DNA from: an uncultured Leptospirales bacterium
GTDB taxonomy: Bacteria; Spirochaetota; UBA4802; UBA5550
DNA length: 64,000 bases
Direction of reading: 5' to 3'
Assembly (NCBI GenBank): GCA_964392365.1
Contig: CAYMPH010000006.1
Location: 3,198 to 67,197, forward strand
The notes below the pieces were generated by a model. That model was not told where the DNA came from, searched no databases, and saw nothing but the letters and a program-made list of their open reading frames with translations. A program made the position numbers and the translations under genes. Below are positions 32,096 to 56,496 of this stretch, in pieces; the first letter of the stretch is position 1; each line of letters starts with the position of its first letter.

Positions 32096-32102
32096 CTTCA
32101 GA

Positions 32103-33605
32103 TTGAGTGAAATAAATTCAGATATTCTGATATTTGCTGATGCGCATCCAGAAGGATCAGATATTACTCATTTATATCTCAATGACTCTTTCATACCTGA
32201 TATTCTTTTCAATAAACTTAAAACATCAAAACTTATAAATAGAATTTACTTTTCTGTTCCAGCTTCTATATCTGAAAAATTCTCTCAATTTGAAAATGTT
32301 ATAATCAGAAACGGGAATGATGGAGTAGATTTCTGGAAGGATGTTTTTTCAAAAACTAATTCCTGTAATATAGTTAAACTATATGCTGATTCCCCTTTTA
32401 TTGATATTACAATTATTGAAGAAATGATTGCAATTCATCTGGAATATCTTGCAGAATTCACCTACTCAGACAATCTTCCTGAAGGTTTAGCCTGTGAAAT
32501 TTTTTCAAGTGATTTAATAAATCTTCTGCCGGAAACAAATGAAAAAACGCTTCAACTTGGAAAAATAATCAAATCAAACATAAATCAGTTCGATGTTGAA
32601 CTTTATTATAAAGAGCCCGATATAAGAGATAAAAGAATTTCATTCCGCTGTACAAATAAGCGCGATAAAATAATTCTTGAGAATATTTTTTCACTTTCAG
32701 AATCAATTCCTGCTTATTCTGAAATTAAAGAACTTATTGAGAAAAACCCTGATATTTTATATACAGGTCCTTCATATCTTGAAATAGAAATTACAGGGAA
32801 CTGTGATCTTGATTGTATTTTCTGTTACAGAAAAACTCTGAAAAAAAATCATTCGGATATGTCTTTAGCATCATTTAAAAAAATAATTTCAGAAATGGAA
32901 ATTTTTAAACTGCCCTATACAATCTGTTTTGGCGGTTCCGGAGAGCCTCTTTATAATCCTGATTTTTATAAAATTGCAGAAATTGCTTTGGAAAATTCTT
33001 TTGTAGAAAGAATAATTGTTGAAACAAACGGAATAAAAGCTGATTCAAATTATCTCTCTTTTCTTGAGGAAAAAGGTGCAGGGAAAATTACTACAATAGT
33101 AAATTTCAATGGACTTAATAAAGACAGTTATTCAGCAATTCATAGAAACGACTTTTTCGAAATTGTGTTTAAAAATATTATTACATTAAATAATTCTGAA
33201 AAAATATCCCCGAATATATATACGCAAATTATGAAAATTAATGAGACTAAACCGATTATAGATAAATATTACGACTTGCTTGAAAAAAATAAAGTGAAAA
33301 TAATTCTTCAGAAACAAAACATATATTCCGGTTCTATTGATGACAGAAGATATTCTGATCTTTCACCCGTTGATAGAGTTCCCTGCTGGCATCTGCAAAG
33401 AGATATGTATATTATTTCAGATGGTTCAGTATGTTTCTGCAAACAGGATGTTGACGGAAAATCAGCAAGGGGTAATATAAATTCAGAATCCGTTTCTGAT
33501 TTATGGGAAAAAGGAAAAAATGCATTTATTTCTGATTATTCAGGGAAATTTTCAGAAAAACCGGATTGCAAATCATGCGATGAATGGTACACCTTTAACT
33601 ATTAA
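32103..33605 (+). CDS. Radical SAM / SPASM-domain enzyme with uncharacterised ~220-aa N-terminal domain
   Basis: CxxxCxxC radical-SAM cluster motif EITGNCDLDCIFCYRK. C-terminal Cys-rich SPASM/twitch region CWHLQRDMYIISDGSVCFCKQD...CKSCDEW. TTG start. Confidence 0.8.
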   Translation: MSEINSDILIFADAHPEGSDITHLYLNDSFIPDILFNKLKTSKLINRIYFSVPASISEKFSQFENVIIRNGNDGVDFWKDVFSKTNSCNIVKLYADSPFIDITIIEEMIAIHLEYLAEFTYSDNLPEGLACEIFSSDLINLLPETNEKTLQLGKIIKSNINQFDVELYYKEPDIRDKRISFRCTNKRDKIILENIFSLSESIPAYSEIKELIEKNPDILYTGPSYLEIEITGNCDLDCIFCYRKTLKKNHSDMSLASFKKIISEMEIFKLPYTICFGGSGEPLYNPDFYKIAEIALENSFVERIIVETNGIKADSNYLSFLEEKGAGKITTIVNFNGLNKDSYSAIHRNDFFEIVFKNIITLNNSEKISPNIYTQIMKINETKPIIDKYYDLLEKNKVKIILQKQNIYSGSIDDRRYSDLSPVDRVPCWHLQRDMYIISDGSVCFCKQDVDGKSARGNINSESVSDLWEKGKNAFISDYSGKFSEKPDCKSCDEWYTFNY

Positions 33606-33629
33606 TTACTATTATTTTTAATAAAACAA

Positions 33630-34373
33630 ATGAAAATAAAAGCTACAGCTATAATCCAGGCAAGAATGAGCTCTGAAAGACTTCCTGGTAAATCTTTACT
33701 CCCTCTTGCAGGCAAACCTTTAATTTGGCATATAATAGAAAGAGCAAAACAAATTGAAAATATTACTGCGGTTGTTCTTGCTACAGGTGAATCTAAAATA
33801 AATGATCCTCTGGAATTGATTGCTGCTGAATGCGGAATTTCAGTATTCAGAGGTTCCGAAAACAATGTTCTTGAAAGATATAAACTTGCTTCTGATAAAC
33901 ACGGTTCAGATTATATAGTTCGAATAACAGGCGATAACCCTTTCACTGATCCGACATATGCTTCAATGGCACTTGAAATTGCAGTTGAATCCGGTGCGGA
34001 TCTTTCATCCTTAATAAATATTCCAATTGGTACTGCAGTAGAAATTATTAAAAAATCAGCTCTGGATGAAGCTTTTTCCATGAGTCACGAAGGGTATCAT
34101 TTTGAGCATGTAACCCCATACATTAAAGAGCATCCTGAACTTTTCAATATTGAAAGACATCCTGCTTCGTTTGAGAATCCATTTGAAAATCTCCGCTTAA
34201 CAGTTGATACGAAAGAAGATTACTCCCTTGCTTCTAAAATTTATGAAGCTCTATATAAAGGGAAAAACTTTCCTCTTGAAACTGTTATCAGCTTCCTTGA
34301 AAAAAATCCTGAACTTGTAAAAATAAACACCGGAATAAAACAACGCGGAATGACACACTCAACTTATGAGTAA
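33630..34373 (+). CDS. Cytidylyltransferase, SpsF/PseF (acylneuraminate cytidylyltransferase-like) family
   Basis: N-terminal AIIQARMSSERLPGKSLLPLAGKPLIWHIIERAK matches the CMP-sugar synthetase / SpsF signature (ARxxSxRLPGK). Confidence 0.8.
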   Translation: MKIKATAIIQARMSSERLPGKSLLPLAGKPLIWHIIERAKQIENITAVVLATGESKINDPLELIAAECGISVFRGSENNVLERYKLASDKHGSDYIVRITGDNPFTDPTYASMALEIAVESGADLSSLINIPIGTAVEIIKKSALDEAFSMSHEGYHFEHVTPYIKEHPELFNIERHPASFENPFENLRLTVDTKEDYSLASKIYEALYKGKNFPLETVISFLEKNPELVKINTGIKQRGMTHSTYE

Positions 34374-35277
34374 AGTAATATCGATAATTACAGACTGGAG
34401 CGCTTCTATCGGCTCAGGCCATATTCAGAGAATGATGTCACTCGCCCGTTTAATTAATTCAAAAAAAGACTTTAAAGCATATATTATAAATCAGAAAAAA
34501 TTTATAGAAGACTACAGAAAATTTGATGATATCATTCTCAATGATATTCATCCTGATACTTTTTTTATAATAAGGGATATGCGCGATTCTGTTCAGGATC
34601 AGATTGAAAAATTAAAAAAATTTGCGCCGGTTCTTGCAATTGATGATCTCGGTAAAGGATCAGACCACGCTGATTTTAAAATCAGCATTCTTCCGGATCC
34701 TCAAACAAATAAACATGATATAGATAAATTTTTATACGGTTACAATTTTTCTGAATCAATAAAGTCACTGCAATCAAAACCAATTTATAATAAAGATATT
34801 GATATTGCATTTTATACCGGTTATAAACGTGATCATAATTATGTCTCATCAATTATAAAACTTTTCCCTCATAATTCAACAGCTGCTGTTCTTTCAGGTA
34901 AAGAATCATTTCTGTTTCAAGATGGAGAAAGAAAAGAATTCACCCTGGAATTTTCAGAAGCACTTCTGAGATCAAAGATTTTAATTTCACATTTCGGCCT
35001 TACCATTTATGAAGGATTTGCGTGCAGAACTGTTCCAATGACAATTCATCCAACGCAATATCACGGGACTCTCACGAAAATAGTACAAAAAGAAATGGGG
35101 ATAATTGATCTGGGATTATTCGAAACTCTTGATAAAAACAGTGCAGCAGAAATTATTAAAAGAACTCTTGCGGATATTAAGGCTGAACCGGTTTCTCCAT
35201 CACAGGTTTTAAACAGGATCATAAATTCTGAAAATAATATCTATAATTTTATATTAAATATTACAAAAACAATATAA
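34366..35277 (+). CDS. PseG/SpsG-like UDP-sugar hydrolase / glycosyltransferase-28-like protein
   Basis: N-terminal IITDWSASIGSGHIQRMMSLARLI resembles the PseG/SpsG GxGHxxR motif. Overlaps the upstream gene by 8 nt. Confidence 0.55.
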   Translation: MSKVISIITDWSASIGSGHIQRMMSLARLINSKKDFKAYIINQKKFIEDYRKFDDIILNDIHPDTFFIIRDMRDSVQDQIEKLKKFAPVLAIDDLGKGSDHADFKISILPDPQTNKHDIDKFLYGYNFSESIKSLQSKPIYNKDIDIAFYTGYKRDHNYVSSIIKLFPHNSTAAVLSGKESFLFQDGERKEFTLEFSEALLRSKILISHFGLTIYEGFACRTVPMTIHPTQYHGTLTKIVQKEMGIIDLGLFETLDKNSAAEIIKRTLADIKAEPVSPSQVLNRIINSENNIYNFILNITKTI

Positions 35278-35326: not shown

Positions 35327-35905
35327 CTAAAAATAGAAACTTACATCAAAAGCACCGCCAAGAACAACTCCTGATAGAGTATCAGAAAAAAGTGGGATTG
35401 CAAAAATTCTTAGACCTGTAACCATATAAGTTTTTCCGGAATAAAATCCTAATCCAAAAAGCGAACTGACAATAGGCCCTGCAGAAAAAAATGGCATGCC
35501 TCTTGAATTAAAGCTCGAATGATAATCAGGTCCGTAGTTTAAACTTACTCCAAGCCCGGGACCGCCTACAAAATATAATTTTTCAGAAATCTTAGTTCTG
35601 AATTCAAAAGTTAATTGCGGTTCAAACTGAAGCAGACTGAATGCAGCTGCAAAAAGAATTGGCCGGAAAACTGGAAAATTAAGAACAAAAGAAAAATCAT
35701 TTGATGGACTGAATCTTGTATTCAGCATTATATCCGCTATCGGGCCTCCAGGGACTCCGCCTGTTGCTACACACATTCTAACATTATCATATCTTCCGCC
35801 TGCTGTTACATTTATTCCAATAGATACCGGTTTAAACTCCTGAGCAGAAAGAACGGCTGGAATTATCATTAAAAGCAGTATTATAAGAGCGAATTTTTTT
35901 TTCAT
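35327..35905 (-). CDS. Small outer-membrane beta-barrel protein candidate
   Basis: Signal peptide MKKKFALIILLLMIIPAVLSAQE. Alternating hydrophobic pattern. C-terminal ...DVSFYF. Confidence 0.5.
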   Translation of the reverse strand: MKKKFALIILLLMIIPAVLSAQEFKPVSIGINVTAGGRYDNVRMCVATGGVPGGPIADIMLNTRFSPSNDFSFVLNFPVFRPILFAAAFSLLQFEPQLTFEFRTKISEKLYFVGGPGLGVSLNYGPDYHSSFNSRGMPFFSAGPIVSSLFGLGFYSGKTYMVTGLRIFAIPLFSDTLSGVVLGGAFDVSFYF

Positions 35906-35918
35906 GTAAACCTCTATT

Positions 35919-36107
35919 TTATAATCTATCTTCAGCCTGACTCCTGAGAGCGATGATTAATTGCTCGTCATGAATGTATCCAAGACCAATTAAAATTTCG
36001 CCAAGAAGACCACCGTCTTTTACCTGCTTTTTCAAGGCTAAATCAAGCTGCCATTCAGAAATAGAACCGCCTTTTACAAGATATTCACCTAACTTCAAAT
36101 TTTCCAT
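35919..36107 (-). CDS. Standalone T2SSE_N / MshEN-like domain protein (62 aa)
   Basis: LGEYLVKGGSISEWQLDLALKKQ...LGEILIGLGYIHDEQLIIAL resembles the tandem 24-aa motifs of the GspE N-terminal (MshEN) domain, which binds c-di-GMP in some members. Confidence 0.4.
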   Translation of the reverse strand: MENLKLGEYLVKGGSISEWQLDLALKKQVKDGGLLGEILIGLGYIHDEQLIIALRSQAEDRL

Positions 36108-36190
36108 AAATAGCTTTCCATTATGAATTATACTTAATTTATTTTAAATATAGATTATTAGCGGGGTTATTGCAATAACTTTTTATTATT

Positions 36191-36898
36191 TTATTTTGCT
36201 GCAGTTGATGAAGAAAGCTTTCTGCGTTTATTTTCAAGCTTTTTCAGGTGAGTGTTTATTATTTTTTCAAAATTTAGAGAACCGTTATTTATTGAAAATC
36301 TTTCAGATTCCATAAAACTGAGATCCGTTGTAATTTTAATTTTGCCGGCTTCTTTAGAATATTTCTGCGCTTCTTTCCAGAAAGGCAGAGCTTCCTTATA
36401 ATATTTTTCAGCAATATCCATGCTTTCATTGATTTCTTTCGCAAAAACCGGATCATAAAATTTTACTTCTATTCTATCATATTTCGAAGCTATTGTCATA
36501 TGGCTTCTCATTATCAAAAGATTAATATGCATAAACATGAGATTTCTATATTTGTGATATTCTTTATCCGAGTTAATTTTAACAAGTGCTTTTGAAGGGA
36601 ATCTGAAATTGCTTTTTAGTGCAGCCTGCAAATAAGAAATATTTTTTCTTAATGTGTTCTCATTATAATATTGTTTAAGCCCGTAAAGTACATAAAAATC
36701 TTCAACAAAATGAGGAACTGTATCATTATGAAGCCTGTTACGCACAATATAATCTGAGAATGGAAGGTACTGACTTTCATCCTTCTCATTATTAAAATAC
36801 TGATACTGGTAATCCTCAGCAGATATCAATACCGGGAAAATAAGAAGCATCAGTAATATAAATATTTTTTCCAGTATATTATTATCAGCAAGTTTCAT
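36191..36898 (-). CDS. Secreted hypothetical protein
   Basis: Signal-peptide-like N-terminus. 235 aa. No motif. Confidence 0.5.
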   Translation of the reverse strand: MKLADNNILEKIFILLMLLIFPVLISAEDYQYQYFNNEKDESQYLPFSDYIVRNRLHNDTVPHFVEDFYVLYGLKQYYNENTLRKNISYLQAALKSNFRFPSKALVKINSDKEYHKYRNLMFMHINLLIMRSHMTIASKYDRIEVKFYDPVFAKEINESMDIAEKYYKEALPFWKEAQKYSKEAGKIKITTDLSFMESERFSINNGSLNFEKIINTHLKKLENKRRKLSSSTAAK

Positions 36899-39363: not shown

Positions 39364-40359
39364 ATGAAATATAAAATAAAAAAATTTCAAAGCCGTATTA
39401 ATGGCAAATTAAATGAAAAGCTGCAGATTTTTAAGAAAAAATCCGGCAAAAAATGGGAATATTTTTTACAAAAAGGTCATGAAAGAATGACAATAATGTT
39501 CATTCCTCATAATGAAAAAAAAATATTTAATTTTCAGATTTCAAAATTTACTATCTCATTTTTTGTATTGCTTTTCATGATAGTTCTCGTTACATCTTCA
39601 TACGCTCTTATCCGGAATAATGCTATAAAAAGAGAAGAAAAAAGACTTCTTCTTACATATCATGACATAAGAGCCCAGCTTCTTATTTTCGAAAATCTTA
39701 CAGTAAGCATAAAAGATCAGATCAGCGACATTAAACCCGAAATTGAAGATATTTACGAATATACTGCAGGCAGCAAAGAAAAAGAAAAAATCTGGTCTTT
39801 GCAGGATTACGACAAGGAAACACTTGATGAACTCAGAAAAATAAAGAATCTTCTGCCAGATGAAATATTTATGATTAAGGATATTCAGAAAGATATTATC
39901 TGTACTACAAATACTGTAAAAACTGTTAAAAATTTTATCGATGTTAGAAGTAAAGTAGTAAAAGATACACCATCTATAATTCCAAATGACGGACACATTA
40001 CTTCATTATTCGGATGGAGACGTTCTCCTTTCGGATATGGACGTGATTTTCATACAGGAATTGATATCGCTGCATCAAACGGAACGCCAATAAGAGCAAC
40101 TGCTCCTGGTGTTGTTGCATCAGTAGGCTGGACAGGCGGTTATGGATTCTCTGTAAGAATAAAACATAAATACGGCTTTGAAACAATATATGCACACTGC
40201 AGCAAAACAGCAGTTGAAAATGGGGCAACAATTACAAAAGGCCAGGTCATTGGATATGTCGGACAAACCGGAAATGCGACCGGAAACCACTGCCATTACG
40301 AAATCCGGCTTGGTAATTTACCAATAAATCCTTATCCTTATATGAGCAGAATCTGGTAA
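39364..40359 (+). CDS. M23-family metallopeptidase (LytM-like)
   Basis: HTGIDIAASNGTPIRATAPGVV...GNHCHYEIR, which is HxxxD...HxH. One N-terminal TM helix. Confidence 0.9.
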   Translation: MKYKIKKFQSRINGKLNEKLQIFKKKSGKKWEYFLQKGHERMTIMFIPHNEKKIFNFQISKFTISFFVLLFMIVLVTSSYALIRNNAIKREEKRLLLTYHDIRAQLLIFENLTVSIKDQISDIKPEIEDIYEYTAGSKEKEKIWSLQDYDKETLDELRKIKNLLPDEIFMIKDIQKDIICTTNTVKTVKNFIDVRSKVVKDTPSIIPNDGHITSLFGWRRSPFGYGRDFHTGIDIAASNGTPIRATAPGVVASVGWTGGYGFSVRIKHKYGFETIYAHCSKTAVENGATITKGQVIGYVGQTGNATGNHCHYEIRLGNLPINPYPYMSRIW

Positions 40360-40569: not shown

Positions 40570-43500
40570 ATGCTTAAATATTCCTGGATATATTTCCTGA
40601 CATTACCGCTTTCTGCGGCGGCAATAATCGCTTTGAGCGCACCTGATGAAAAACCTTATCGGGAAAAAGTTCTTGATTATATAAACACGCACAAGCTGAC
40701 CGAAGAAACTAAAATAATAGACCCTGAAAAATCCTCTGAAATATCAACAGGGGCTCTTGCTTTCCAGAATACGGCTCAATCATTCGGATATAAGAACGGA
40801 GACTGGCAGAAATATATTAATTATCCTGAATATGGAAAACTTTCCGAAGAACAGAAAAAAACTATTCTAATTGATTCGGATGAGGACTTCCAGCTGTTAT
40901 CCTACGGCAATATGAAACTGAATCTAAAATATGGAGGTTCTGTTTTTACAGATGAAAAATATAAGCAGTATGATACTGACGCACCTGTTTCAAGACTGAT
41001 ACAGCCGGGATTTCTGCCGGAACAGCAGATGCAGGTACACATGGAAGGGAAAATCGGCAAAAGACTTACAGTATTTATAGATCATGACAGCACAAAAAAG
41101 GATAACAAATATGTTATACAGTACAAGGCTATACGTGATGATGAACTTATACGTGAAATCAATGCAGGCGATATTGATATTAAATTCAACCACTCAAAAT
41201 ATGCAGTTTACGACAATACTACATCAAAAGGAATGGGTATTGATGTAACACTGAAAAAAAACAATCTCCAGATCAAGGCATTCGGAAGTATTTCAAAAGG
41301 CCAGACTGAAATTGAATATTTTAGAGGAAATTCTTCACCAGGAAGCAACAAGCTTGCAGAATATAATTATATCAAAAAAATGTTTTATCAGCTTGAGCCT
41401 TTCAAACGATATGATGCGCGAACAACACCACCTATACTTGATCCTGAATTTAATACTTCAGTAACAATAACATCCAATCCGTCAAGCCCGGATACATATT
41501 CATTAACACAGGTGAATATAGATCCGAACAGCTTTGAACTTTATATGGACCCGCAGAATCAATATGCGAATCTTAATTCAATACAATTATCAAAAGTTGA
41601 CACCCAGGGTCATTATACAAAATTAATGCAGGGAGCTGAATATTCAATAAATTTCACAACTGGAGTAATTACATTTATAAGAGATATCCCGTCAAATGCA
41701 AAAATCTTTGCTGTTTACACTTTTGGCGGTGGATCAACAGCAACAACAGACGCTTCAGCTTATCCGCCATTAGATATTGATCATCCTGGTGGCCAGTTTT
41801 CCGGTAAAATTTTTGTTTTTATTAAATATGGTTATTCAATTAATGAAAAAACAACTACAACCAATTATTCAACCAAAGACCCGGGAATGACTGTAATACA
41901 AGACAATAAAGTTCACCTTGATGTTTATGAAATCCGATCATTTTATCAGATTGGAGACAGGCAGCTTTTAACAGACAACTTCAGCCTGAAATTTTATAAT
42001 GAAAATCAGAGTATGGATCAGACATCGCAAACAAAACTGGGTAAGTATACAATTGATTATTCAAAAGGTTTAATTCAATTTACTCTAAGAGAACCTTTTA
42101 AAACAGTATTGCCATCAAATTTTTTACAGTATATTTATGCTGAAAATCAGTCAACTTCAGCATATCAGTATTCCAGATATAATATTAAAATTGATTATTA
42201 CAAGGAAGCCAGAAGCTTCCAGCTGAAACATTTTAATCTGCTGCCGAACAGCGTCCGTGTAAAGGTTAATGATATTGAGATCGCCCAGGGTTTATATATG
42301 GTTGATCATGTTTCAGGATTTTTAATGTTTCTTGATCCGAATAATCCTGTAATAGGACCTGAAACTAAAATAGAAATTAAATATGAATACATGCCGTTTT
42401 TATCTCAAAGCCAGTCTTTTATCGGAGGTGTGCGTGTTGATTATAAGGTTTTAGATGCTATTAATTTCGGAGGAAGCATTCTGTATTCAAATTCTTCCGG
42501 AATAACAAGCATTCCAATGATAGGTAATACACCGAATCAGCTTTTTTTATTCGAAGGTGATGTTTCTCTGGATCTGAATGAAAGGAAAATGGCAGGTGTT
42601 GTAAATGCAATAGCAGGAACAAATTATAGAACAGTTCCTGTAGAATTTAAGGCATACGGAGAATATGCCCGAAGCTACACCACATTCAATACTTTCGGCA
42701 AAGCATTAATCGATAACCTTGAAACTGCAAATGAAATAATATCTATTTCAACTTCAGAAAAAGAATGGCAGCTCGCATCAATGCCTTTCGCTTATACAAA
42801 TCTGGACAGAGCAATGCTTAATTATTATTTTTACAGAGATCCTCTGAATCCTGGAACTTTATTCGGGCCTGGATATTCTGCAATTCCTGTAGATTACAGA
42901 ATAAAATCAGGACCTTATAATGTTGCAACAGGACATGTACCTTTCAATATTACTCCGGAAGCATCGCAGAGATCTCTTGTTTTTGATATGAATTTCTCAT
43001 ATGAGGGCGGAGCTGAAACTGTTGTTTCTGTGGCTTCAAGAAAACTTTCCACTACAGCTGTTGATTTTTCAGGACTTCAATATGTAGAAGTATCATATAT
43101 GTATCAGGGATCAGCAGATATTTCTATCAATTTTGATCTTGGAAAAATAAATGAAGATTCAGACAGTAACGGAATTCTCGGGACTGAAGATTTAAATAGA
43201 AACGGAATACTCGATTCTGATCCTTCTTTGAATTATTATGAAGATGTAGGATATGATTTCTATGGATATAAATTCAACAGCAATGCTACAGCAAGAGTAG
43301 GTTCAGGACCAAGACTTTCAACATCAACCATGGGTGATGGAGTTTTAAACAGTGAAGACCTGAATGGAAACGGGGTTCTTGATACTATTGAAAGTGTTTA
43401 TACAATTCCAAGCTCAACAATATCTTCTTCAACACAATGGAAAACAATTGTAATACCTGTGGATTTTTCCAATTCCGAATCAAATAAAGCAATAATGAAA

Positions 43501-46248
43501 CAAGTTGAATCTCTACGGCTTTATATTAAAAAAATAAGCGGCGGAAATACAGGAAAACTTTACATAGACAACATAAAATTTGTAGCTTTGAAATGGAGCA
43601 ATATTCAGAAAGCTGCTGGTGACACTTTAAATGTTTCTATTGTAAATAATATTTCTGATGTTGAATACAGTGCCAATTCATTTATTTTATCTAACCCGGA
43701 AGTTTACAAGCAGCTTTATGGAGAAAAAAATGCACAGGATCTTGTTAAACAGACTGAAAGTTCTCTGCAGCTTATTTATAATATTATAAGCAATCCAATC
43801 CCTATTCAGACGAGTGTTTCAGTCACTCAAAGATTTCAAAATACTATGGATTTGCGATTTTATAATACTCTAAATTTATGGCTGAATATCCGGCCTACAT
43901 CCTCTCCTGGAGATCAGATTGGAATTATTATAGGCTCTTCTGACAGCGATTATATTGAATATAAATTCAATATGAATAATGATGGAGCCTGGCGAGAAAT
44001 TAAAATGAAACTAAAAAACGGATCATCCGGTTCTGTCGCAGGAACAGTAACAGGCTTTCCGGATATGAAACGGATAATTTTCATAAAAGCAGTTGTATAT
44101 AATTCGGCAGCAGGACACAGCGGGAAACTGTGGATAGATAATATCTATGCATCGGAGCCCGACGTTCTTGAAGATGGAGCTCACTGGGTTGAAACTGAAC
44201 TAAAAATAACCAAGCCTCTGTTTATAACTAAAGACGGCACACCCGTGTTTTCAGATTTTGCTATTAAATATACTACCAAAGGTTATGGAGCAAATTTTAA
44301 TACTATTGGCAAAAAGGATTCCGATATTTCAGAACTATACCATGAGCTGACATCATCTGTAAAAATTCTTCCAAATTGGAACACCCAGTTTGCCATGTAT
44401 ATTGAAGATTCTTCCACCGACAGTCTGAATGAAAAGGTTATTGATTCGAAAAGAGGAACAAGAAAATACAACAGCATTTTTGTTGCTTCAGATTATACAT
44501 CAAATATAAATGCAGTTCCTACAGTAAAAGTTTCATATAAAAATGATAACTATAACCAGAGTGTAAATGAACGTATCAACAGCACTCTTGTAAATAAAAT
44601 AGCAACAAGCTCAATTCATACTCCGCTTATTACTATAATTGAAAAAATTGATAACTTTTTATGGGGAAAACTTAATGCAGTTCTTAACATGAATATGCTG
44701 TTTAAAGAAGATACAATAACCAGAGACACAACATTTCTTCCTTCAAATGTTTCCGAGAAACGCCAGAAATCCTCTGCAGTATTAAATCTAGATTACCAGA
44801 ATAAAATATTCTACATTCAGCCAAATTTTTCTACAGCCTCTGAAGAAGTTGTCAATGGAGTTTCATTGCTGTCTTTAAACAATACAGAAATAACAGGAAA
44901 TGTTAACGGTAGTTTTCATTTCCCATTTGCATATGAAGGAAACGATTTTAGATTCGTTGAAAAAAGCATGCTAACAGGTTTTGTAATAGGAATTAATCAG
45001 TCACAATATTTTTCCCCGTCATATAAGATGGATATTAATTATCTTGAAAACAGATTCAGAGATTTCAATTTTACAACATCACCCGAACCGGATTTTAAAA
45101 GAGTAAAAGATGCAAGAAGCTATATGTCAACGCAGATTGCTTTACCAATTAATTTATATAAAATTCCTGAAACAAAATTCATAAAAAATTTCTCATTCAA
45201 TTATCTTCGTTCTGTTTATTTATATGAAACGGATATACCATATGAAGGAGAAAAAACAGCCCAGGGAAATGAACAATACGGAATATCAAGAGCTTTAAGT
45301 ACAATAGCCGGGGCTGCTCTCAATATATTCCAATACTGGCCTGGATATTTTTTTACAGGCAGAAATAATTCAGCAGCAGGTAGGGATTATATCACCGGAA
45401 CAATTAATAATCACACATCCGGAACACAATATACCGGATACAACAATAATCTCAGGCTTATAGATAATTTTTCATTTAATTTCACACTTGATTTTGATAA
45501 AATAGCTGTTGTTTCTTCGCTTTCTTTGAATCAGGTCGCAGAAAGATTAAACATATTCGGTATTTCCCAGCAGGTTATAACATTCAGATATGGAATTAAT
45601 TTCACTTTTGATTTCATGAAACTTTTTACATCCGGCGAATTTTTCAGACCTAATCAGGTCGGGAAACCGTATCACGGTCTTGTTTTCGACATCGGTTATG
45701 CCATTTCCGACAACATGCTCATTACTACAAATATTGAGGAATTGGTTCATTCACCATTGATCGGCTTTTCGATAAAATGGGGCAGGGCTAATGTCGGAAT
45801 AAAAACAGGGGTTGATTATAAGGAAAGATATTTCAAGGAGTTTATTGTTGATGATGGAGGACCGGATTCTATCTATGCGAAAAATATTCCAGGAAATTCA
45901 GTATTTAAAAATACAGATATGGGTTTTAAATTATCTTTTATTTTTGAAACTGATGTTAACTGGCTCTATAATTTCTTTGCCAGTTTTTATAAACTGACTG
46001 CTTCACCTATTTTTACTTTTGAATATATCATGGGTATAAACAGATATGATTACAGCATGAGCGTTTCACCCCAGCCATACGATTCATACTTATTCAATAT
46101 GAAACTGACGCTGGATCTTCATAAAAATATCCAGGGAGGAATTCAAAGCAGATTCGCGCTTGAACAATACAGAAGCTGGCTTACAACCGGAATCAGCAGA
46201 GAAGTTTTCTCTTATGAAATTGCATTGAATTTCACTCTACTTTTTTAA
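40570..46248 (+). CDS. Giant (1892 aa) secreted outer-membrane protein; SprA-like (T9SS translocon-like) candidate with EF-hand-like Ca-binding loops
   Basis: Signal peptide. Huge beta-rich sequence ending ...EIALNFTLLF (OMP-like C-terminal Phe). Internal loops DLNRNGILDSD and DLNGNGVLDTIE match the EF-hand D-x-N-x-N-G-x-[ILV]-D consensus. The SprA assignment is by size, architecture and lineage only. Confidence 0.4.
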   Translation: MLKYSWIYFLTLPLSAAAIIALSAPDEKPYREKVLDYINTHKLTEETKIIDPEKSSEISTGALAFQNTAQSFGYKNGDWQKYINYPEYGKLSEEQKKTILIDSDEDFQLLSYGNMKLNLKYGGSVFTDEKYKQYDTDAPVSRLIQPGFLPEQQMQVHMEGKIGKRLTVFIDHDSTKKDNKYVIQYKAIRDDELIREINAGDIDIKFNHSKYAVYDNTTSKGMGIDVTLKKNNLQIKAFGSISKGQTEIEYFRGNSSPGSNKLAEYNYIKKMFYQLEPFKRYDARTTPPILDPEFNTSVTITSNPSSPDTYSLTQVNIDPNSFELYMDPQNQYANLNSIQLSKVDTQGHYTKLMQGAEYSINFTTGVITFIRDIPSNAKIFAVYTFGGGSTATTDASAYPPLDIDHPGGQFSGKIFVFIKYGYSINEKTTTTNYSTKDPGMTVIQDNKVHLDVYEIRSFYQIGDRQLLTDNFSLKFYNENQSMDQTSQTKLGKYTIDYSKGLIQFTLREPFKTVLPSNFLQYIYAENQSTSAYQYSRYNIKIDYYKEARSFQLKHFNLLPNSVRVKVNDIEIAQGLYMVDHVSGFLMFLDPNNPVIGPETKIEIKYEYMPFLSQSQSFIGGVRVDYKVLDAINFGGSILYSNSSGITSIPMIGNTPNQLFLFEGDVSLDLNERKMAGVVNAIAGTNYRTVPVEFKAYGEYARSYTTFNTFGKALIDNLETANEIISISTSEKEWQLASMPFAYTNLDRAMLNYYFYRDPLNPGTLFGPGYSAIPVDYRIKSGPYNVATGHVPFNITPEASQRSLVFDMNFSYEGGAETVVSVASRKLSTTAVDFSGLQYVEVSYMYQGSADISINFDLGKINEDSDSNGILGTEDLNRNGILDSDPSLNYYEDVGYDFYGYKFNSNATARVGSGPRLSTSTMGDGVLNSEDLNGNGVLDTIESVYTIPSSTISSSTQWKTIVIPVDFSNSESNKAIMKQVESLRLYIKKISGGNTGKLYIDNIKFVALKWSNIQKAAGDTLNVSIVNNISDVEYSANSFILSNPEVYKQLYGEKNAQDLVKQTESSLQLIYNIISNPIPIQTSVSVTQRFQNTMDLRFYNTLNLWLNIRPTSSPGDQIGIIIGSSDSDYIEYKFNMNNDGAWREIKMKLKNGSSGSVAGTVTGFPDMKRIIFIKAVVYNSAAGHSGKLWIDNIYASEPDVLEDGAHWVETELKITKPLFITKDGTPVFSDFAIKYTTKGYGANFNTIGKKDSDISELYHELTSSVKILPNWNTQFAMYIEDSSTDSLNEKVIDSKRGTRKYNSIFVASDYTSNINAVPTVKVSYKNDNYNQSVNERINSTLVNKIATSSIHTPLITIIEKIDNFLWGKLNAVLNMNMLFKEDTITRDTTFLPSNVSEKRQKSSAVLNLDYQNKIFYIQPNFSTASEEVVNGVSLLSLNNTEITGNVNGSFHFPFAYEGNDFRFVEKSMLTGFVIGINQSQYFSPSYKMDINYLENRFRDFNFTTSPEPDFKRVKDARSYMSTQIALPINLYKIPETKFIKNFSFNYLRSVYLYETDIPYEGEKTAQGNEQYGISRALSTIAGAALNIFQYWPGYFFTGRNNSAAGRDYITGTINNHTSGTQYTGYNNNLRLIDNFSFNFTLDFDKIAVVSSLSLNQVAERLNIFGISQQVITFRYGINFTFDFMKLFTSGEFFRPNQVGKPYHGLVFDIGYAISDNMLITTNIEELVHSPLIGFSIKWGRANVGIKTGVDYKERYFKEFIVDDGGPDSIYAKNIPGNSVFKNTDMGFKLSFIFETDVNWLYNFFASFYKLTASPIFTFEYIMGINRYDYSMSVSPQPYDSYLFNMKLTLDLHKNIQGGIQSRFALEQYRSWLTTGISREVFSYEIALNFTLLF

Positions 46249-46253
46249 AAAAA

Positions 46254-47342
46254 CTAATCTTTTAAATCACCACTGAAAAAATCAATCAGACTGTTTTTAA
46301 AACTTCTGTATATTTTTTTAATATCTGTCATTGCAATCCCGTCTCTTCTATTTTTTATTACTTCAAGTGTTGTGGAATAAATAACTTTCCAGAGAAGGTC
46401 CCTGTCAGGACAGTATTTGAAATAATCTATATTAACCTGATACGCGCCTTTATATTTCCTGGCACCACCCTGTATTGTAATTTCTTTGATAATATCATTC
46501 AGATTTATTTTGTTGCTTCTTGCTCTGAATGAAGCATCTATTGTAAGTCCGCTTTTCCCTTCAATTGCAGCAAACACAATTGCTGCAGTGTACATTCCTT
46601 CTTTCAGAAGGAAATCAGCTGCAATAGCGATTGAATCACGAACCGATTCATCAACAAATCCAATTCCGGAAATTGCCCAATCTTTATAAATTATTTTATT
46701 TTTCCCGGCAATGTTAATATTTTTCACAGCTTCTTTACTTAATGGAACACCGGAAATTCTGCTTACAAGATCCGGATCTGAATATTTTGACAGATAATCA
46801 AGCGCTTTAAAATCTTTAACTGTTGCATACTGATAAATATCAGTATCCGACTGAATCCCGCAAACAAGTGCACTTGTTATAATTTTCATTTTCCCGGATT
46901 CAATTTTTAAATCAAGCAACTCTAACAACTCGGCAAGAATAGTACTTGTTGATCCTGAATCTTCATCAATTAATCTGTAATCTGCGAGAAAATTTTCTTT
47001 AAGCTTTTCGTGGTGATCTATATGAAAAGCGCATGGAATTTTTTTTGATAAAATATCAATATATGCATCCTGAAAATCAAGGACAGCATACGCATCAAAT
47101 TTTTCTATATGCGGGATTTTATTTATATAAAGCGGGATTCTAAATAATTTTACAAATTCAACATTCTGCTGTAGAGAAATTTTCTTCTCTGTAAAAATTT
47201 CACTGCCTTTCCCGAATGATGTTAATAATGTTTTCAAAATAAATGCTGAAGCTAAAGAATCGGGATCAGGCGAACCCTTTATATATATAAGAATGTTTTT
47301 ATATTTATTTACAGCTGAAATAAAATGTTCTACCGGATCCAA
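46254..47342 (-). CDS. DHH-family phosphoesterase (NrnA-like oligoribonuclease/pAp phosphatase)
   Basis: GSPDPDSLASAF, FHIDHHEK (DHH) and C-terminal GGARKYKGAY (DHHA1 GGGH-like). Confidence 0.8.
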   Translation of the reverse strand: MDPVEHFISAVNKYKNILIYIKGSPDPDSLASAFILKTLLTSFGKGSEIFTEKKISLQQNVEFVKLFRIPLYINKIPHIEKFDAYAVLDFQDAYIDILSKKIPCAFHIDHHEKLKENFLADYRLIDEDSGSTSTILAELLELLDLKIESGKMKIITSALVCGIQSDTDIYQYATVKDFKALDYLSKYSDPDLVSRISGVPLSKEAVKNINIAGKNKIIYKDWAISGIGFVDESVRDSIAIAADFLLKEGMYTAAIVFAAIEGKSGLTIDASFRARSNKINLNDIIKEITIQGGARKYKGAYQVNIDYFKYCPDRDLLWKVIYSTTLEVIKNRRDGIAMTDIKKIYRSFKNSLIDFFSGDLKD

Positions 47343-47351: not shown

Positions 47352-49505
47352 TTATATTTTAAAAATAATCAGGCTCACATCGTTCGTCTGTTTCTTATCT
47401 TTTATAAAGTCGCTTAAATCCTGATATATTCTCCTGGAAATAATTGAAGCATTTTCATCCTTATTTTTTTTAATAATATTTTTAACTTTATCTAATGAAT
47501 AACTTTCTCCATTAGGATTTATCGCGCTTAGAAAACCATTTGAAAATAAAAGGCCAATGCTTCCCTGGGCAACCTTTACCACATGAGATTCATATTTAAA
47601 ATCTTTATCTACGCCTATTGGAATGCCTTTCGTTGTATAGGAATTAAACTCATTTGCAGCTGCATTAAATATAATAAGAGGGTTATATCCTGCGTTTGAA
47701 TAATTTATTTCACCATTTGTGGAATATGTCATAAGGAAAGTTGGTGCATATTTTTTTGTAAGGCGCGATGTTGTGAGAACCCAGTTTAATACACTTAGTA
47801 TTTTATCAGGAGTCTCAACCTTTCTGGGCCGTGAATGAAATGCAGAAAAAAGTTCAAGAGAAATAATTGCAGATTCAACACCATAATATGCAGAATCCGA
47901 AATAATAATGGCTATTTTATCAAGGCCAATTTTTATACTGTCGTAATAATCTCCGCCATAAGATGAATTATTCATATAGAAAGAACTAATTTTTATTCCT
48001 TCAATACTGTTCAATTCTCTTGGTAGAATTTTTTTCTTAATTCCACCAACAACCATTTTATCATGCTCCACAACCTGGTTAAGCCTTAACTCTTCAAGTA
48101 AAAGACCATTTTCCAGCAGTCGCTGAAACTGAATTCTATAAATTTCAAGAGTTGAAATAAATGTTTTAGAATAAATTTTTTCATCAGGGAGAGAGCCAAA
48201 AATCAGAAATCCAATAAGACCTGATGTTTTATGAAAAAATGGCATCGCTATTTCAATATTATATTTCTGGTAGAATTTTAATAATTCGTCTTTATCTACT
48301 GAATATACAATATCTGTATAAATCATAAATTTATCAAGAACGCGTGAATTAACATTTAAATTTTCAACAATAACATTATTTATTTCAATCGGGGTTTTAT
48401 CTATTTCCGGACCTATTCCATGAACATACCTGAATTTGCCGTCATTTGAATTTGAAAGGAATAAATAAGCGCCGCTAATTTCAAACATGTTTCTGAACTC
48501 ATCAATAGACTTATTGTAAAATTCATCCCAAAGCGGTCCATGTTTATCTGCAACAGTAAGCTGACTGATTGATTTGAAAAATAATTCAAAGTTTCTATCT
48601 AAATTTATATATTCTCTTCTGAATAAATTTTCAATTCTCGGTTTAACAAATCTGTAAAAAATCACCATATAAAGAAAAGAAAGAATTGTTATACTTGATA
48701 ATACTGTATTTGGATTTGTAAATAAATCATTCCTGTAAAAAATGCATAAAAAAGTTGGAACAAACAGAAGGATAAAAATTAAAACCCAGAAAATCAATTT
48801 AATATTGAAAATTTTAAAGTCTATTATACGAATATCATATGTGGAATAATTCATAATAAGCAATATAAATATAAAAGGAAACGTAAATCCGACAATTCTT
48901 AACATTGTAGTGTTATAAACAATCGGCATAATAAAAATAAAAGTCAGTATCAGCAAAACAAACAAAATAAGCCCATACGACATTAATTTCAGTTCCTGAC
49001 TTAAAACTTTAGATTCAATCTGAAATTTTGATTTATACAAAATTAAAAAAAGAGAACCAGCCATATAAATAGAAAAAACAACAATATAAAGCGGATAGAA
49101 ACTGCTAAATTGAAAATCAATGTATCCATTTAAAGTTGCGGAGTTTATAATAAGATCAGATGAAACTGTAAGTATGGAAATTGCAATTCCAGGGATAGAT
49201 GCAATTAGAACAAATTTTAAATTAGGCTTCAGCTTATTATCCGGATATATTTGAAAAAAATGAAAAAAGAATTCAGCAAGAAGAATAATGATTGAGAAAT
49301 AGATTTTTGCGCTTACTGAAATTGGTATAAGCTGCAGATCAATAAGCATAATAAACTGAATAAGGAAAATTATTGATGCAATAAAAGAAATCAGAGAAAA
49401 GATCCGGTTTAATGTAAAACTGCCTCTTCTGATCAAGCTGGAAACGGCCAAACCCTGAGCTATAAAAAATGCAATAGCTGAAATTACAATTTCTGTTTGA
49501 AGCAC
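47352..49505 (-). CDS. Membrane sensor with C-terminal PP2C-type (SpoIIE/RsbU-like) serine phosphatase domain
   Basis: About 10 N-terminal TM helices. C-terminal SYGGDYYD...DSAYYGVES...LLFSNGF motifs are typical of the SpoIIE/PP2C domain. Confidence 0.8.
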   Translation of the reverse strand: MLQTEIVISAIAFFIAQGLAVSSLIRRGSFTLNRIFSLISFIASIIFLIQFIMLIDLQLIPISVSAKIYFSIIILLAEFFFHFFQIYPDNKLKPNLKFVLIASIPGIAISILTVSSDLIINSATLNGYIDFQFSSFYPLYIVVFSIYMAGSLFLILYKSKFQIESKVLSQELKLMSYGLILFVLLILTFIFIMPIVYNTTMLRIVGFTFPFIFILLIMNYSTYDIRIIDFKIFNIKLIFWVLIFILLFVPTFLCIFYRNDLFTNPNTVLSSITILSFLYMVIFYRFVKPRIENLFRREYINLDRNFELFFKSISQLTVADKHGPLWDEFYNKSIDEFRNMFEISGAYLFLSNSNDGKFRYVHGIGPEIDKTPIEINNVIVENLNVNSRVLDKFMIYTDIVYSVDKDELLKFYQKYNIEIAMPFFHKTSGLIGFLIFGSLPDEKIYSKTFISTLEIYRIQFQRLLENGLLLEELRLNQVVEHDKMVVGGIKKKILPRELNSIEGIKISSFYMNNSSYGGDYYDSIKIGLDKIAIIISDSAYYGVESAIISLELFSAFHSRPRKVETPDKILSVLNWVLTTSRLTKKYAPTFLMTYSTNGEINYSNAGYNPLIIFNAAANEFNSYTTKGIPIGVDKDFKYESHVVKVAQGSIGLLFSNGFLSAINPNGESYSLDKVKNIIKKNKDENASIISRRIYQDLSDFIKDKKQTNDVSLIIFKI

Positions 49506-50584: not shown

Positions 50585-51247
50585 ATGCAAATAAAAATTA
50601 CTAAAATTCTCCTCTTGATTTTTTTAGCAACAGCTGCATTTTCACAACAGCAAAAAGTTGAGAAACCTGCAGATACACAAAACCTGGATTCACAAACTGC
50701 TGAAGCAAACACTACTATACCTGTGCAGTCAAAATACAGTAACAACTTTAAAATCGGATATATAGCTTTTAATAAAAGGATAGATCTGGCAGGTAGAGGT
50801 GAAATAATTGAATTCGAATTTCTTATTAAAAACAATTTAGACGATCCGCAGGAATTATACATTTGGACAATAGCAACTTGTGAAAAGATTGAAAAAACAA
50901 GATCAAGTTACGAGTCCCCAATAGAAGAAAAAGATAGATTATCAAATTTCTGCCCATTTCCGGATAATCTTAAATCATTTGAATATACTGAAAAAAGCAA
51001 AGGAACTGAAGACATAACAAAAGGTAAAGTATCATACATTAAATATCCTAAAGAACCTAAAAACGGAGTAAATCCGGATACAGGAAAACCTTATCTTCTG
51101 AAAGATAAGTTATTAGTAATAACAAAGCATCTTAGTAAATACAGAAATAACTATACTTATTTCAATAATTTCACTCTTCTTATTTTTGATAAAGACGGGA
51201 AGCTGGTTTTCAGACAGCTTTATGAATTAAAAGGCTGGAGAAGATAA
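50585..51247 (+). CDS. Secreted hypothetical protein
   Basis: Signal peptide ILLLIFLATAAFSQQ. 220 aa. No motif. Confidence 0.5.
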   Translation: MQIKITKILLLIFLATAAFSQQQKVEKPADTQNLDSQTAEANTTIPVQSKYSNNFKIGYIAFNKRIDLAGRGEIIEFEFLIKNNLDDPQELYIWTIATCEKIEKTRSSYESPIEEKDRLSNFCPFPDNLKSFEYTEKSKGTEDITKGKVSYIKYPKEPKNGVNPDTGKPYLLKDKLLVITKHLSKYRNNYTYFNNFTLLIFDKDGKLVFRQLYELKGWRR

Positions 51248-54936: not shown

Positions 54937-55722
54937 TTAATTTGAAAAAGCATAACCGGCAGAAAGGATGAAACTTAAGGAGTGATTTATAAAATCTTTT
55001 ATATCAGGTGCATATGCGATACCGGTTTGTGAATTGGTAAAACTTAAAGGCGCTGCAAGAGACATTACATTCATTGTCCAATCAAAACCAACTGAAACAA
55101 AAAGTCCTCCTGCAAAATAAGCAGTAAAATTTGCCTCTCCTCCCATTGAAAAACCGCCTGCATAAACTTCGGTTGAATATGAGGTTTTATTTAATGCATA
55201 AGCAACTGTTGCCGGAGTTAATCCGCCAAATGAATATCCGAAGTATGGTGTAAAAGTAATATCCCAGGATTTTCTGTTTGTTACATGAGCAGATAATCCG
55301 GCATATATTGAGATATCCCTGTATGCAATCTGGCTCCAGTTCTGATAATTAGGTCCGAAAAGAGTTCGTTGAATATTCAGTGTGCCTTTTAATTTTGTTT
55401 TTATACCAAGATGATCAATCGGCATATATTCAAAAATAAATCCTGCTGAAAAAGCTATATCCGAAAGCCATACCAGCTTTGAAGTTCCAGATGAGGTGAA
55501 TGTATAGACTGTATTATCAATGAACTTGTTCTCAGCAGTAATTGTATCGCCAATGATTCCGCCCATTGAAAAAAAAGCTCCAAGCAGCATCTGCCCTTTA
55601 TGAGCTCCAATTGGCTCTTTATCAAGATCAGCAAATTTTGATGCAGCTACTGCACTTGTGTAAATTGCTAAAAATAAAAAAAATGCAGTAGATCTGGTAA
55701 TTATTTTTTTAAATACACTCAT
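54937..55722 (-). CDS. Outer-membrane beta-barrel protein candidate
   Basis: Signal peptide. Amphipathic beta-strand pattern. 261 aa. Confidence 0.5.
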   Translation of the reverse strand: MSVFKKIITRSTAFFLFLAIYTSAVAASKFADLDKEPIGAHKGQMLLGAFFSMGGIIGDTITAENKFIDNTVYTFTSSGTSKLVWLSDIAFSAGFIFEYMPIDHLGIKTKLKGTLNIQRTLFGPNYQNWSQIAYRDISIYAGLSAHVTNRKSWDITFTPYFGYSFGGLTPATVAYALNKTSYSTEVYAGGFSMGGEANFTAYFAGGLFVSVGFDWTMNVMSLAAPLSFTNSQTGIAYAPDIKDFINHSLSFILSAGYAFSN

Positions 55723-55757
55723 AAAAGTATATTAAACTTGAACTGAATTAATGTCAA

Positions 55758-56297: not shown

Positions 56298-56496
56298 GAT
56301 ATTCTCCTTATATAACTTGATGAATTTATTAAATATATCATTTTTATCAGATTTATTCAATGTATTATTATTGTTTTATTTTATTTTTAAAAATATTTAC
56401 CTATTGATTATCTGCCAATAATTTTCTTATTGCATAAATCATTTCATTTTAAACAAATATACCAACAGCAAGTCATACAATAATTCTGGAGGCCCA

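Follow-up and report, generated by a model that had tools for sequence, protein, structure and literature searches.

The largest open reading frame in the 64-kb stretch of spirochaetal DNA analysed here (the window) encodes a 1,892-aa protein that is a distant but genuine homolog of SprA and has the SprA fold; it is, however, not the canonical SprA of a type IX secretion system (T9SS). It belongs to the SprA/Sov superfamily, from whose known members it has diverged strongly, and on balance it probably forms the protein-conducting pore of an export route that is reduced or coupled differently. The route is regarded in this way because the protein lacks the SkpA/SprE-binding N-terminus, its host belongs to the spirochaetes, which are not known to use the T9SS, and neither canonical partners nor type-A cargo were found nearby. 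The gene occupies 40570..46248 of the + strand, stop codon included, and begins with ATG; the second-largest open reading frame encodes 903 aa, and a preliminary description of this DNA was correct in naming it the largest gene. Its designation as a giant outer-membrane barrel gene of the SprA superfamily is based on the translated open reading frame, at least 146 full-length homologs, the SprA fold, and hhalign alignment to canonical SprA.

Relation to SprA

The preliminary description had proposed an SprA-like protein, to be checked with the SprA model TIGR04189. This search returned a significant match in three stretches (E 1.3e-26); however, the score of 92.3 bits is below the curated equivalog cutoff of 200. 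When the protein was scanned in pieces against NCBIfam, residues ~490-740 were the only stretch to match TIGR04189 alone (profile 523-789, E 1.3e-24). The Pfam family SprA_N (PF14349), which is carried by FCPU426 and canonical SprA relatives, had no match at E <= 1 in the query or in three family members. Foldseek searches with both AF2 halves of the protein gave F. johnsoniae SprA as the best match (E 2e-43 and 1e-30, with the next best at ~1e-7), and the top structures for each half were chain A of 8GL8, 8GL6, 6H3I and 6H3J, indicating that the predicted structure has the SprA fold. Profile alignment by hhalign to canonical SprA was colinear over 1,425 columns, with query residues 100-1721 corresponding to SprA 301-2155 (99.9% probability, E 3.8e-39); the colinear lengths against canonical SprA ranged from 1,046 to 1,425 columns. 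Furthermore, graded intermediates link the query with bona fide SprA end to end, at up to E 3e-230. Altogether, these data confirm the SprA-like assignment.

The same data bear on the alternative offered in the preliminary description, a novel giant barrel or adhesin, for which the likeness to SprA would be superficial and the product of generic barrel similarity or compositional bias. This explanation is effectively refuted by an alignment (E 4e-39) whose 1,425 colinear columns include the non-barrel inserts, by the chain of intermediates that reaches bona fide SprA, and by a Foldseek margin of more than 20 orders of magnitude in two independent halves. TonB-dependent transporters and other large outer-membrane barrels (BauA, SusC, BtuB, MtrB) have 22-26 strands, not ~36, and matched with Foldseek E-values of 1e-4 or worse, compared to 1e-30 for SprA; unlike the TonB-dependent transporters, the query has neither a plug domain nor a TonB box.

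Similar to canonical SprA, the query is encoded by a very large chromosomal gene that is mostly single-copy; homology extends along nearly the whole length, the two halves have the same fold as those of SprA, beta-sandwich inserts break the barrel strands at equivalent positions, and SprA has an acidic block where the query has calcium loops. Dissimilar from canonical SprA, the query shows 10-15% identity to it in the structural alignment and ends in Phe, which the canonical sequences examined do not. The size was said to fit SprA, but does so only approximately: canonical SprA (2,398-2,505 aa) is longer by ~500-600 aa.

Barrel architecture and calcium-type loops

The protein begins with MLKYSWIYFLTLPLSAAAIIALSA, in which a Lys is followed by a hydrophobic stretch without Cys, and therefore no lipobox is present. 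Residues 1-24 (40570..40641, +; K3, hydrophobic core, no Cys) show the low conservation that is usual in signal peptides, and residues 5-23 form a helix in the AF2 model; the Lys and the predicted hydrophobic helix fit a putative Sec signal peptide, in line with the signal peptide of the preliminary description. At the other end, the OMP-type C-terminal Phe that had been pointed out is invariant (F1892; 42/42 and 104/104 family members), and the terminal ...NFTLLF has the form of a BAM-type C-terminal beta-signal, which is accompanied by the hydrophobic N-terminus. These features suggest that the protein resides in the outer membrane. The beta-rich character claimed for it agrees with the DSSP assignment of the AF2 models, in which numerous strands of 13-25 residues are predicted.

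The predicted barrel strands are arranged in three blocks that are separated by inserted domains. The first block, residues 107-263 (40888..41358, +), contributes ~9 long strands by AF2 DSSP and is the most conserved part of the protein (conservation 0.69; consensus ...TVYIDHDS...EINAGEIDIKF...), and it aligns in hhalign with the 'IEAGNVSL' motif region of canonical SprA. Residues 264-599 (41359..42366, +) form a beta-sandwich insert of Ig/fn3-like type, as indicated by the NCBIfam piece scan, by weak DUF2460/phage-tail-like matches of the 1,892-aa protein in profile scans, and by fn3 Pfam matches in its FCPU426 relatives; the end of this insert, with the strands that follow it, makes up the ~490-740 stretch that matches TIGR04189. 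A second block of ~5 long strands, found by DSSP in both half-models, follows at residues 600-706 (42367..42687, +). Two beta-jelly-roll inserts, one of them CBM11-like, lie at residues ~780-1180 (42907..44109, +; approximate boundaries). SprA and Sov have an extracellular cap and a lateral opening for the docking of PorV or Plug, and these jelly rolls are of the cap type; they presumably form the barrel cap. The C-terminal block, residues 1183-1892 (44116..46245, +), supplies ~26 long strands and terminates in the beta-signal ...EIALNFTLLF. Outside the inserts, 36-41 long strands were counted by hand on the DSSP strings of two overlapping AF2 half-models; the SprA/Sov translocon is a single transmembrane barrel of 36 strands.

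Four DxDxDG-type, calcium-binding-like loops are located in the first jelly roll, at residues 860-942 (43147..43395, +). The preliminary description had quoted two near-perfect EF-hand loops, residues 874-885 (DLNRNGILDSDP) and 930-941 (DLNGNGVLDTIE), which are 56 residues apart. Both are real and conserved, but each is preceded by an overlapping extra loop (863-874, DSDSNGILGTED; 919-930, STMGDGVLNSED), giving four loops in two back-to-back pairs (863-874/874-885 and 919-930/930-941) with an E-D junction common to both members. The strict motif D-x-[DN]-x-[DN]-G-x-[LIVM]-[DN] was found twice versus 0.0037 expected, and two occurrences were reached in 0 of 20,000 composition-preserving shuffles. 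Ligand positions D874, N876, N878, D882, D930 and G935 are invariant, N934 is kept in 41/42 members, and the loop block is also preserved in the outgroup consensus. Loop 4 (D-L-N-G-N-G-V-L-D-T-I-E) has the full ligand pattern of a 12-residue EF-hand loop at positions 1, 3, 5, 7, 9 and 12; loop 2 has no acidic residue at position 12, in loop 1 of this protein ligand position 9 is a Gly, and loop 3 departs from the pattern at positions 1 and 3. In the apo AF2 model the loop region is coil (pLDDT 54-70), and DSSP assigned coil and short strands, with no flanking helices, to residues 856-945; the loops are therefore of the DxDxDG type and not helix-loop-helix EF-hands, which usually occur in pairs. 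DxDxDG calcium loops (EF-hand-like) occur in dockerins, thrombospondin type-3 repeats and many beta-sandwich domains. As in such loops, loop 4 follows D-x-N-x-N-G-x-x-D-x-x-E, and the loops are in tandem with acidic residues common to neighbours, as in calcium 'wires'; judged from these residues, they may bind calcium. The block aligns with an acidic but degenerate scaffold in canonical SprA, where the four intact DxDxDG loops of the query are replaced by a degenerate, expanded segment.

Homology with SprA points to protein conduction through a channel as the most likely function of the protein. In the mechanism that we propose, the protein would be exported by Sec, and BAM would insert into the outer membrane a giant barrel of roughly 36 strands built from residues 107-263, 600-706 and 1183-1892 of the chain. 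The inserted beta-sandwich domains (the Ig/fn3-like module and the two jelly rolls, one CBM11-like) would close one end of this barrel and be stiffened by the four DxDxDG calcium loops, and folded periplasmic substrates would pass into the water-filled lumen at its periplasmic end and be released at the cell surface.

Between the signal-peptide-like segment and the first barrel block lies a short periplasmic N-terminal region, residues 26-106 (40645..40887, +), as delimited by conservation, pLDDT and the start of the hhalign alignment. Its one conserved motif is Y74..G77-D-W79: the mean top-residue frequency is 0.56 at residues 74-90 but 0.27-0.28 at residues 26-73 and 91-106, compared to 0.53-0.69 elsewhere in the protein, and AF2 pLDDT is mostly low (30-50) across the region. 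It stands where canonical SprA has an N-terminal region of ~300 residues, the alignable part starting at query ~100 and SprA ~301, and a long conserved SkpA/SprE-binding N-terminus is thus not found. In canonical SprA, this long extension folds inside SkpA, contacts SprE and is essential for transport (PMC10994853); the query replaces the segment that is essential in F. johnsoniae with ~80 residues that, apart from one short motif, are poorly conserved. Profile scans detected no OmpH/Skp gene in the window.

Export partners, cargo and neighbouring genes

Pfam and NCBIfam searches of the 64-kb window revealed no T9SS core gene (GldK/L/M/N or PorK/L/M/N, PorV, PorU, SprE/PorW, SprT/PorT), and no T9SS genes were present among the conserved neighbours of 81 related loci. 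Type-A C-terminal domains (CTDs) were sought by motif and phmmer in six frames of 1.78 Mb from 81 related genomes, a sample of syntenic housekeeping DNA; there were no motif matches, and the best phmmer E-value was 0.14, while positive control loci gave five matches. In an NCBIfam scan of 102 C-termini, neither TIGR04183 (type-A) nor TIGR04131 (type-B) was among the best 25 families, and hence at most 2 of the 102 members can match either of these sorting-domain families. A PorW/SprE line in the latter scan proved to be generic TPR cross-matching.

It could be that the query is instead a divergent SprA of a complete canonical T9SS, with PorV, a GldK/L/M/N-type motor/ring, SprE/SprT and CTD cargo encoded elsewhere in the genome, in keeping with the type IX-like secretion capacity put forward in the preliminary description. 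The end-to-end SprA homology and the SprA fold agree with this explanation, as does the neighbourhood, since sprA normally lies apart from the other T9SS genes and their lack in the window is to be expected. Moreover, more distant SprA-like relatives adjoin canonical type-A CTD proteins, and a PorV/PorQ-family protein is annotated in the spirochaete Brachyspira (bioRxiv 10.1101/2025.01.03.631275). However, the query is under the TIGR04189 equivalog cutoff, has no SprA_N match, and is missing the conserved SkpA-binding N-terminus needed for canonical transport; the type-A CTD search was negative where its controls were positive, no T9SS family was detected in the window, and published accounts restrict the T9SS to Bacteroidota or the FCB group. 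A complete canonical system is thus considered unlikely, and the reduced or differently coupled pore is preferred.

The gene directly upstream encodes a membrane-anchored M23 (LytM) metallopeptidase (39364..40359, +; PF01551, E 1.9e-32) with intact HxxxD and HxH motifs (H-T-G-I-D and H-C-H). In 60 of 62 occurrences the M23 gene has this position and orientation, with a median gap of 71 bp, and no terminator-like site was detected in the 210-bp gap of the window; it is possible that the two genes are co-transcribed and that the peptidase acts with the barrel, e.g., in local peptidoglycan remodelling. The linkage is missing in a Leptospiraceae-like subclade and in the more distant tier-2 relatives described below, which indicates that M23 is not a general functional partner. 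On the other side, a DHH-family protein (46254-47342, -; in 58-60 of the loci) and a SpoIIE/PP2C-domain protein (47352-49505, -; in 53-55 of the loci), both assigned by Pfam, are convergent neighbours in fixed order, and their conservation may reflect vertical synteny only.

These neighbours also raise the question of whether the SprA-fold barrel was repurposed for a non-secretory role, either as an uptake or glycan-binding channel for large substrates with a CBM11-like cap, or as an envelope element that coordinates cell wall and outer membrane with the M23 peptidase. The CBM11-like jelly-roll inserts would suit such a role, as would the tight linkage to what appears from its motifs to be an active peptidoglycan endopeptidase, kept where other neighbours change, the ZapA and STAS regulator genes adjoining tier-2 relatives, and the failure to detect cargo or T9SS partners in the sampled sequence. 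Against this, all superfamily members characterised so far export proteins, CTD cargo adjoins relatives in other phyla, a CBM-like fold in an SprA cap does not by itself imply sugar binding, and the M23 linkage is not universal. A non-secretory role is therefore judged rather improbable, and protein export remains the favoured function.

Distribution of the family

The at least 146 full-length homologs share 41-51% identity. Every named close homolog belongs to Spirochaetota (uncultured, Leptospirales-affiliated MAGs), as does each of the 80 GTDB loci retrieved, and a spiro-SPASM gene is present in the window; the host is a spirochaete and not a member of the Bacteroidota/FCB superphylum, to which the lineage had initially been thought to fit. 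This separates the query from canonical SprA, as does the lack of T9SS partners and CTD cargo in the sampled sequence. At least 127 spirochaetal species-level genomes carry the family, for the most part as a single copy; closed spirochaetal chromosomes with the gene include OY760686.1, OW818666.1 and CAVSFD010000002.1. An exhaustive search retrieved 1,335 representative relatives, some of them from uncultured Hydrogenedentota, Elusimicrobia, Aerophobetes and FCPU426. Outside the canonical SprA group, all named relatives that were sampled have the annotation 'hypothetical'.

The literature regards the T9SS and SprA as a speciality of Bacteroidota/FCB, and a conserved family of SprA homologs is now found in spirochaetes. 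The presence of such homologs across spirochaetes and other phyla implies that this barrel, the largest known from a single chain, predates the T9SS in which it was discovered and has a wider distribution. Since the TIGR04189 and PF14349 cutoffs miss the spirochaetal branch, genome surveys under-count SprA-like translocons. More tentatively, and as a possibility rather than an expectation, a distinct, shorter calcium-loop branch in Spirochaetota (with Hydrogenedentota, Elusimicrobia and others), devoid of canonical SkpA/SprE coupling and type-A CTD cargo, could constitute an unrecognised spirochaete outer-membrane protein-export route, perhaps coordinated with a dedicated M23 hydrolase, and SprA-type translocons would then not be limited to the FCB T9SS. 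If the spirochaetal branch, which lacks the N-terminal coupling element essential in F. johnsoniae, still exports proteins, it would show which T9SS parts are dispensable for SprA-type transport, and would add a new outer-membrane export route in a phylum whose surface-protein export is poorly understood.

More distant relatives fall into 'short SprA-like' giants of Leptospiraceae and 'Spirochaetia' MAGs and Ca. Hydrogenedentota (tier 2), and those of FCPU426, Ca. Aerophobetes, Elusimicrobia and further lineages (tier 3). Both tiers resemble the query in size (1,550-2,200 aa), C-terminal Phe, calcium-loop block and CBM11/fn3-type inserts, and tier 2 aligns with it over the full length. Unlike the query, some tier-3 members have Pfam SprA_N and adjoining canonical type-A CTD cargo, and these members thus probably belong to T9SS-like systems. 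Tier 2 differs from the query in having an upstream STAS gene instead of the M23 peptidase, and its members also adjoin the division protein ZapA.

The giant open reading frame and its calcium-type loops

ORF calling and translation demonstrated that positions 40570-46248 (+) encode a real ORF with an ATG start and 1,892 aa. As the preliminary description stated, no other gene in the window is as large, the second-largest ORF encoding only 903 aa. The N-terminus of the giant protein (MLKYSWIYFLTLPLSAAAIIALSA...) carries a basic residue and a hydrophobic core with no cysteine, and the structure model predicts a helix there, consistent with the signal peptide that had been proposed. The C-terminus reads ...NFTLLF, and the outer-membrane-type final Phe noted earlier was invariant in alignments of 42 and 104 relatives. 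In the protein database, the cluster representative P0001, from a 212,802-bp NCBI contig, is 100% identical to the giant protein.

Two EF-hand-like calcium loops had also been described, and both are present, at residues 874-885 and 930-941. The strict DxDxDG-type motif occurs twice in the protein against 0.0037 occurrences expected, none of 20,000 shuffles yielded two, and the ligand positions are invariant or almost so throughout the aligned family. Furthermore, an overlapping extra loop precedes each of them (863-874 and 919-930), and the block therefore comprises four loops in two pairs rather than two loops. No flanking helices surround the loops in the structure model; thus, they are DxDxDG calcium-type loops, and a helix-loop-helix EF-hand identity was ruled out. 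With these refinements, the earlier observation on the ORF was confirmed. Most plausibly, the candidate calcium loops would stiffen the cap after the chain has arrived at the calcium-rich exterior.

Homology to canonical SprA

[quoted passage not shown] No Pfam family, SprA_N included, matched the giant protein, and PDB sequence searches with the single sequence or a 42-sequence profile did not reach SprA. Profile-profile comparison of the family with canonical SprA of Chlorobiales and Bacteroidetes returned 99.9% probability and E 2.8e-37 over 1,046 columns, and a greedier setting returned E 3.8e-39 over 1,425 colinear columns, joining query residues 100-1721 to SprA 301-2155. TIGR04189 was matched by 22 of 24 sampled outgroup proteins (best E 3.3e-230), and the outgroup alignment matched end to end both the spirochaetal family (E 1e-233) and canonical SprA (86-2057 to 244-2466; E 1.6e-98). 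Taken together, the profile-profile alignment and the intermediate outgroup establish that the giant protein truly belongs to the SprA/Sov superfamily, although it has diverged very far, and the SprA-like call was upheld; an unrelated barrel is scarcely credible beside the long colinear alignment.

Canonical SprA has 2,398-2,505 aa, and the giant protein is 500-600 aa shorter, with the clearest loss at the N-terminus, since it aligns only from SprA residue ~301 on. The ~80 residues before its first strand are modeled with low confidence and mostly show a mean top-residue frequency of 0.27-0.28, compared to 0.53-0.69 elsewhere, apart from a short conserved motif at residues 74-90 (0.56). In F. 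johnsoniae, the extended, highly conserved N-terminus of SprA folds within the SkpA trimer and touches SprE, and its deletion abolishes type 9 transport (PMC10994853). The spirochaetal branch is therefore of interest, as it lacks a part that the model system cannot do without. Overall, the giant protein is a SprA-superfamily member of SprA fold, a predicted giant barrel that, to judge from its SprA homology, would act as an outer-membrane protein-conducting channel.

Host range and gene neighbourhood

An FCB-group lineage had been assumed for the protein, and this was incorrect. A word-indexed protein search returned 146 matches; among the 120 listed, nearly all were full length (1,842-1,930 aa) with 41-51% identity, and every named source was an uncultured Spirochaetota, Spirochaetes or Leptospirales MAG, the named matches being annotated 'hypothetical protein'. 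A GTDB scan of one genome per species found 127 relatives, and all 80 of the loci kept are spirochaetal, the closest (93% identity) from an 'uncultured Leptospirales bacterium'; a spirochaete-specific spiro-SPASM radical-SAM gene also lies within the window. An exhaustive HMMER search with the N-terminal 830 residues against 1.84 billion representatives yielded 1,335 relatives, of which 451 reached E <= 1e-30. Tier 1 of these is the spirochaetal family; tier 2 consists of full-length proteins of 1,940-2,075 aa whose sources are Ca. Hydrogenedentota and MAGs labelled Leptospiraceae or 'Spirochaetia'; and tier 3 holds distant proteins (1,550-2,200 aa), including those of FCPU426, Ca. Aerophobetes and Elusimicrobia. 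Each named member examined, whether spirochaetal or from Hydrogenedentota, Aerophobetes, Elusimicrobia or FCPU426, carries a hypothetical annotation, and no cultured hosts were found among family members. In reviews and primary papers alike, the T9SS is treated as restricted to Bacteroidota or FCB, and the full-text literature yielded no account of spirochaetal SprA homologs or of proteins called 'SprA-like' in non-FCB bacteria; the spirochaetal branch extends the range over which the largest single-chain barrel known occurs.

In the precomputed annotation, nine members (P0016, P0025, P0035, P0037, P0039, P0042, P0043, P0045 and P0049) carry PF27067.1, for which the local Pfam copy returned no such family; this entry may have been added to Pfam very recently and cover the giant-protein family.

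To examine synteny, ORFs from the window and the 80 related loci were clustered. An M23 peptidase lies directly upstream of the giant gene on the same strand in 60 of 62 occurrences (median gap 71 bp), a convergent DHH-family gene follows in 58 of 59 (median gap 4 bp), and a SpoIIE/PP2C-domain gene comes next in 53 loci. The M23-giant pair is kept even where other neighbours differ, and the M23 gene is missing in a Leptospiraceae-like subclade, which has aconitase and IMPDH neighbours, and in tier 2. The window's M23 (LytM) peptidase (39364-40359) has a single N-terminal hydrophobic segment as membrane anchor and intact HxxxD and HxH zinc motifs, and the 210-bp gap to the giant gene holds no terminator-like site; the enzyme might open the peptidoglycan to make room for a periplasmic assembly. 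The outer flanks are housekeeping genes (MlaD, RadA-like, enoyl-CoA hydratase, IspE-like kinase, PRPP synthetase and two-component systems), and this, with the stable synteny, indicates that the giant gene is a vertically inherited core gene outside any island. Altogether, the gene is conserved across a large group of uncultured spirochaetes, mostly in one copy for each genome, together with its calcium-type loop block and a persistent M23 neighbour.

Two copies that share their flanking synteny but only 63% identity occur in the MAG MFD04716.bin.2.40 (L033 10001-15641 and L080 4464-10064); either the bin may mix two related organisms, or the copies may be true paralogues whose context was duplicated as well. 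At a further locus (L079 9926-15525), the gene is read as two adjacent ORFs (752 and 1,132 aa) by frameshift, pseudogene formation or assembly error. Partner switching pairs STAS proteins with PP2C phosphatases. A small STAS-domain gene (L082 4051-4389, L086 9608-9943 and L088 9585-9989) lies directly upstream, on the same strand, of each of three independent tier-2 SprA-like genes (Hydrogenedentota, 'Spirochaetia' and sulfidic-cave MAG hosts), two of which have a convergent ZapA downstream, and in the window family a SpoIIE/PP2C phosphatase (47352-49505), two genes downstream, takes the place of this arrangement. The barrel may be under partner-switching control, unless the pattern is a coincidence, given how many STAS/PP2C modules these genomes have.

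Export partners, cargo and other window genes

None of the 46 annotated window ORFs encodes Por_Secre_tail, PorV, PorP/SprF, GldK/L/M/N, PorU, PorT or Skp, and a PorW/SprE line in an NCBIfam scan of 102 C-termini was dismissed as generic TPR matching. Among more distant relatives, an unannotated 2,053-aa SprA-like gene on a 986-kb contig (L084) is followed just downstream by at least four secreted-type proteins (17039-26162, minus strand) ending in near-identical or canonical type-A sorting domains of textbook form (…NYPNPFNP…VFNIRGQKVATL…SGVYFYKL…KMLLLK). In an Aerophobetes-like lineage (L083 10001-22630), a 1,567-aa SprA-like gene precedes a same-strand 2,555-aa surface-type multi-Ig/fn3 protein with a FlgD-Ig-like C-terminal domain, possibly a dedicated pore and cargo pair. 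Some members of this wider non-canonical clade thus look like T9SS-type exporters, and L083 and L084 served as control loci for a cargo search.

The search, with these domains as seeds, plus a motif, covered the window and all 80 spirochaetal loci in six-frame translation (1.78 Mb, 7,238 segments) and gave no motif match and no significant phmmer match (best E 0.14); the control loci gave five matches, one of them not a seed. As most of the DNA sampled comes from one and the same syntenic region, this result speaks no more than moderately against abundant type-A cargo. A complete canonical T9SS encoded elsewhere in the genome would accord with the exporter-like relatives, but is rather unlikely given that the giant protein, unlike canonical SprA, falls short of the HMM cutoff and lacks SprA_N, the conserved N-terminal coupling element and an FCB host. 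A barrel repurposed for a non-secretory role would account for the failure to see cargo in the sampled loci and fits poorly with those same relatives; it is slightly less probable again. Since the canonical hallmarks are absent and no partners or cargo were seen in the window or sampled loci, an export route of SprA type that is reduced, or coupled in a different way, is favoured, by a modest preference.

Five further window ORFs of 192-261 aa (35327-36898, 50585-51247 and 54937-56360) matched no Pfam or NCBIfam family; signal-like N-termini are present in two, at 50585-51247 and 55758-56360. At 24562-28545, a 250-aa TPR protein is encoded between PEGA-domain proteins of 572 and 497 aa on the same strand, the 497-aa one having TPRs at its C-terminus; all three have signal-like N-termini and possibly form an envelope or surface complex. 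Finally, at 31022-35277, the gene for a secreted parvulin-type PPIase precedes those for the spiro-SPASM radical-SAM protein, whose N-terminal region is cytidylyltransferase-like, for a CMP-sugar-type cytidylyltransferase and for a protein with weak PseG likeness; the cassette is specific to spirochaetes, and its product is probably a nonulosonic-acid-like sugar.
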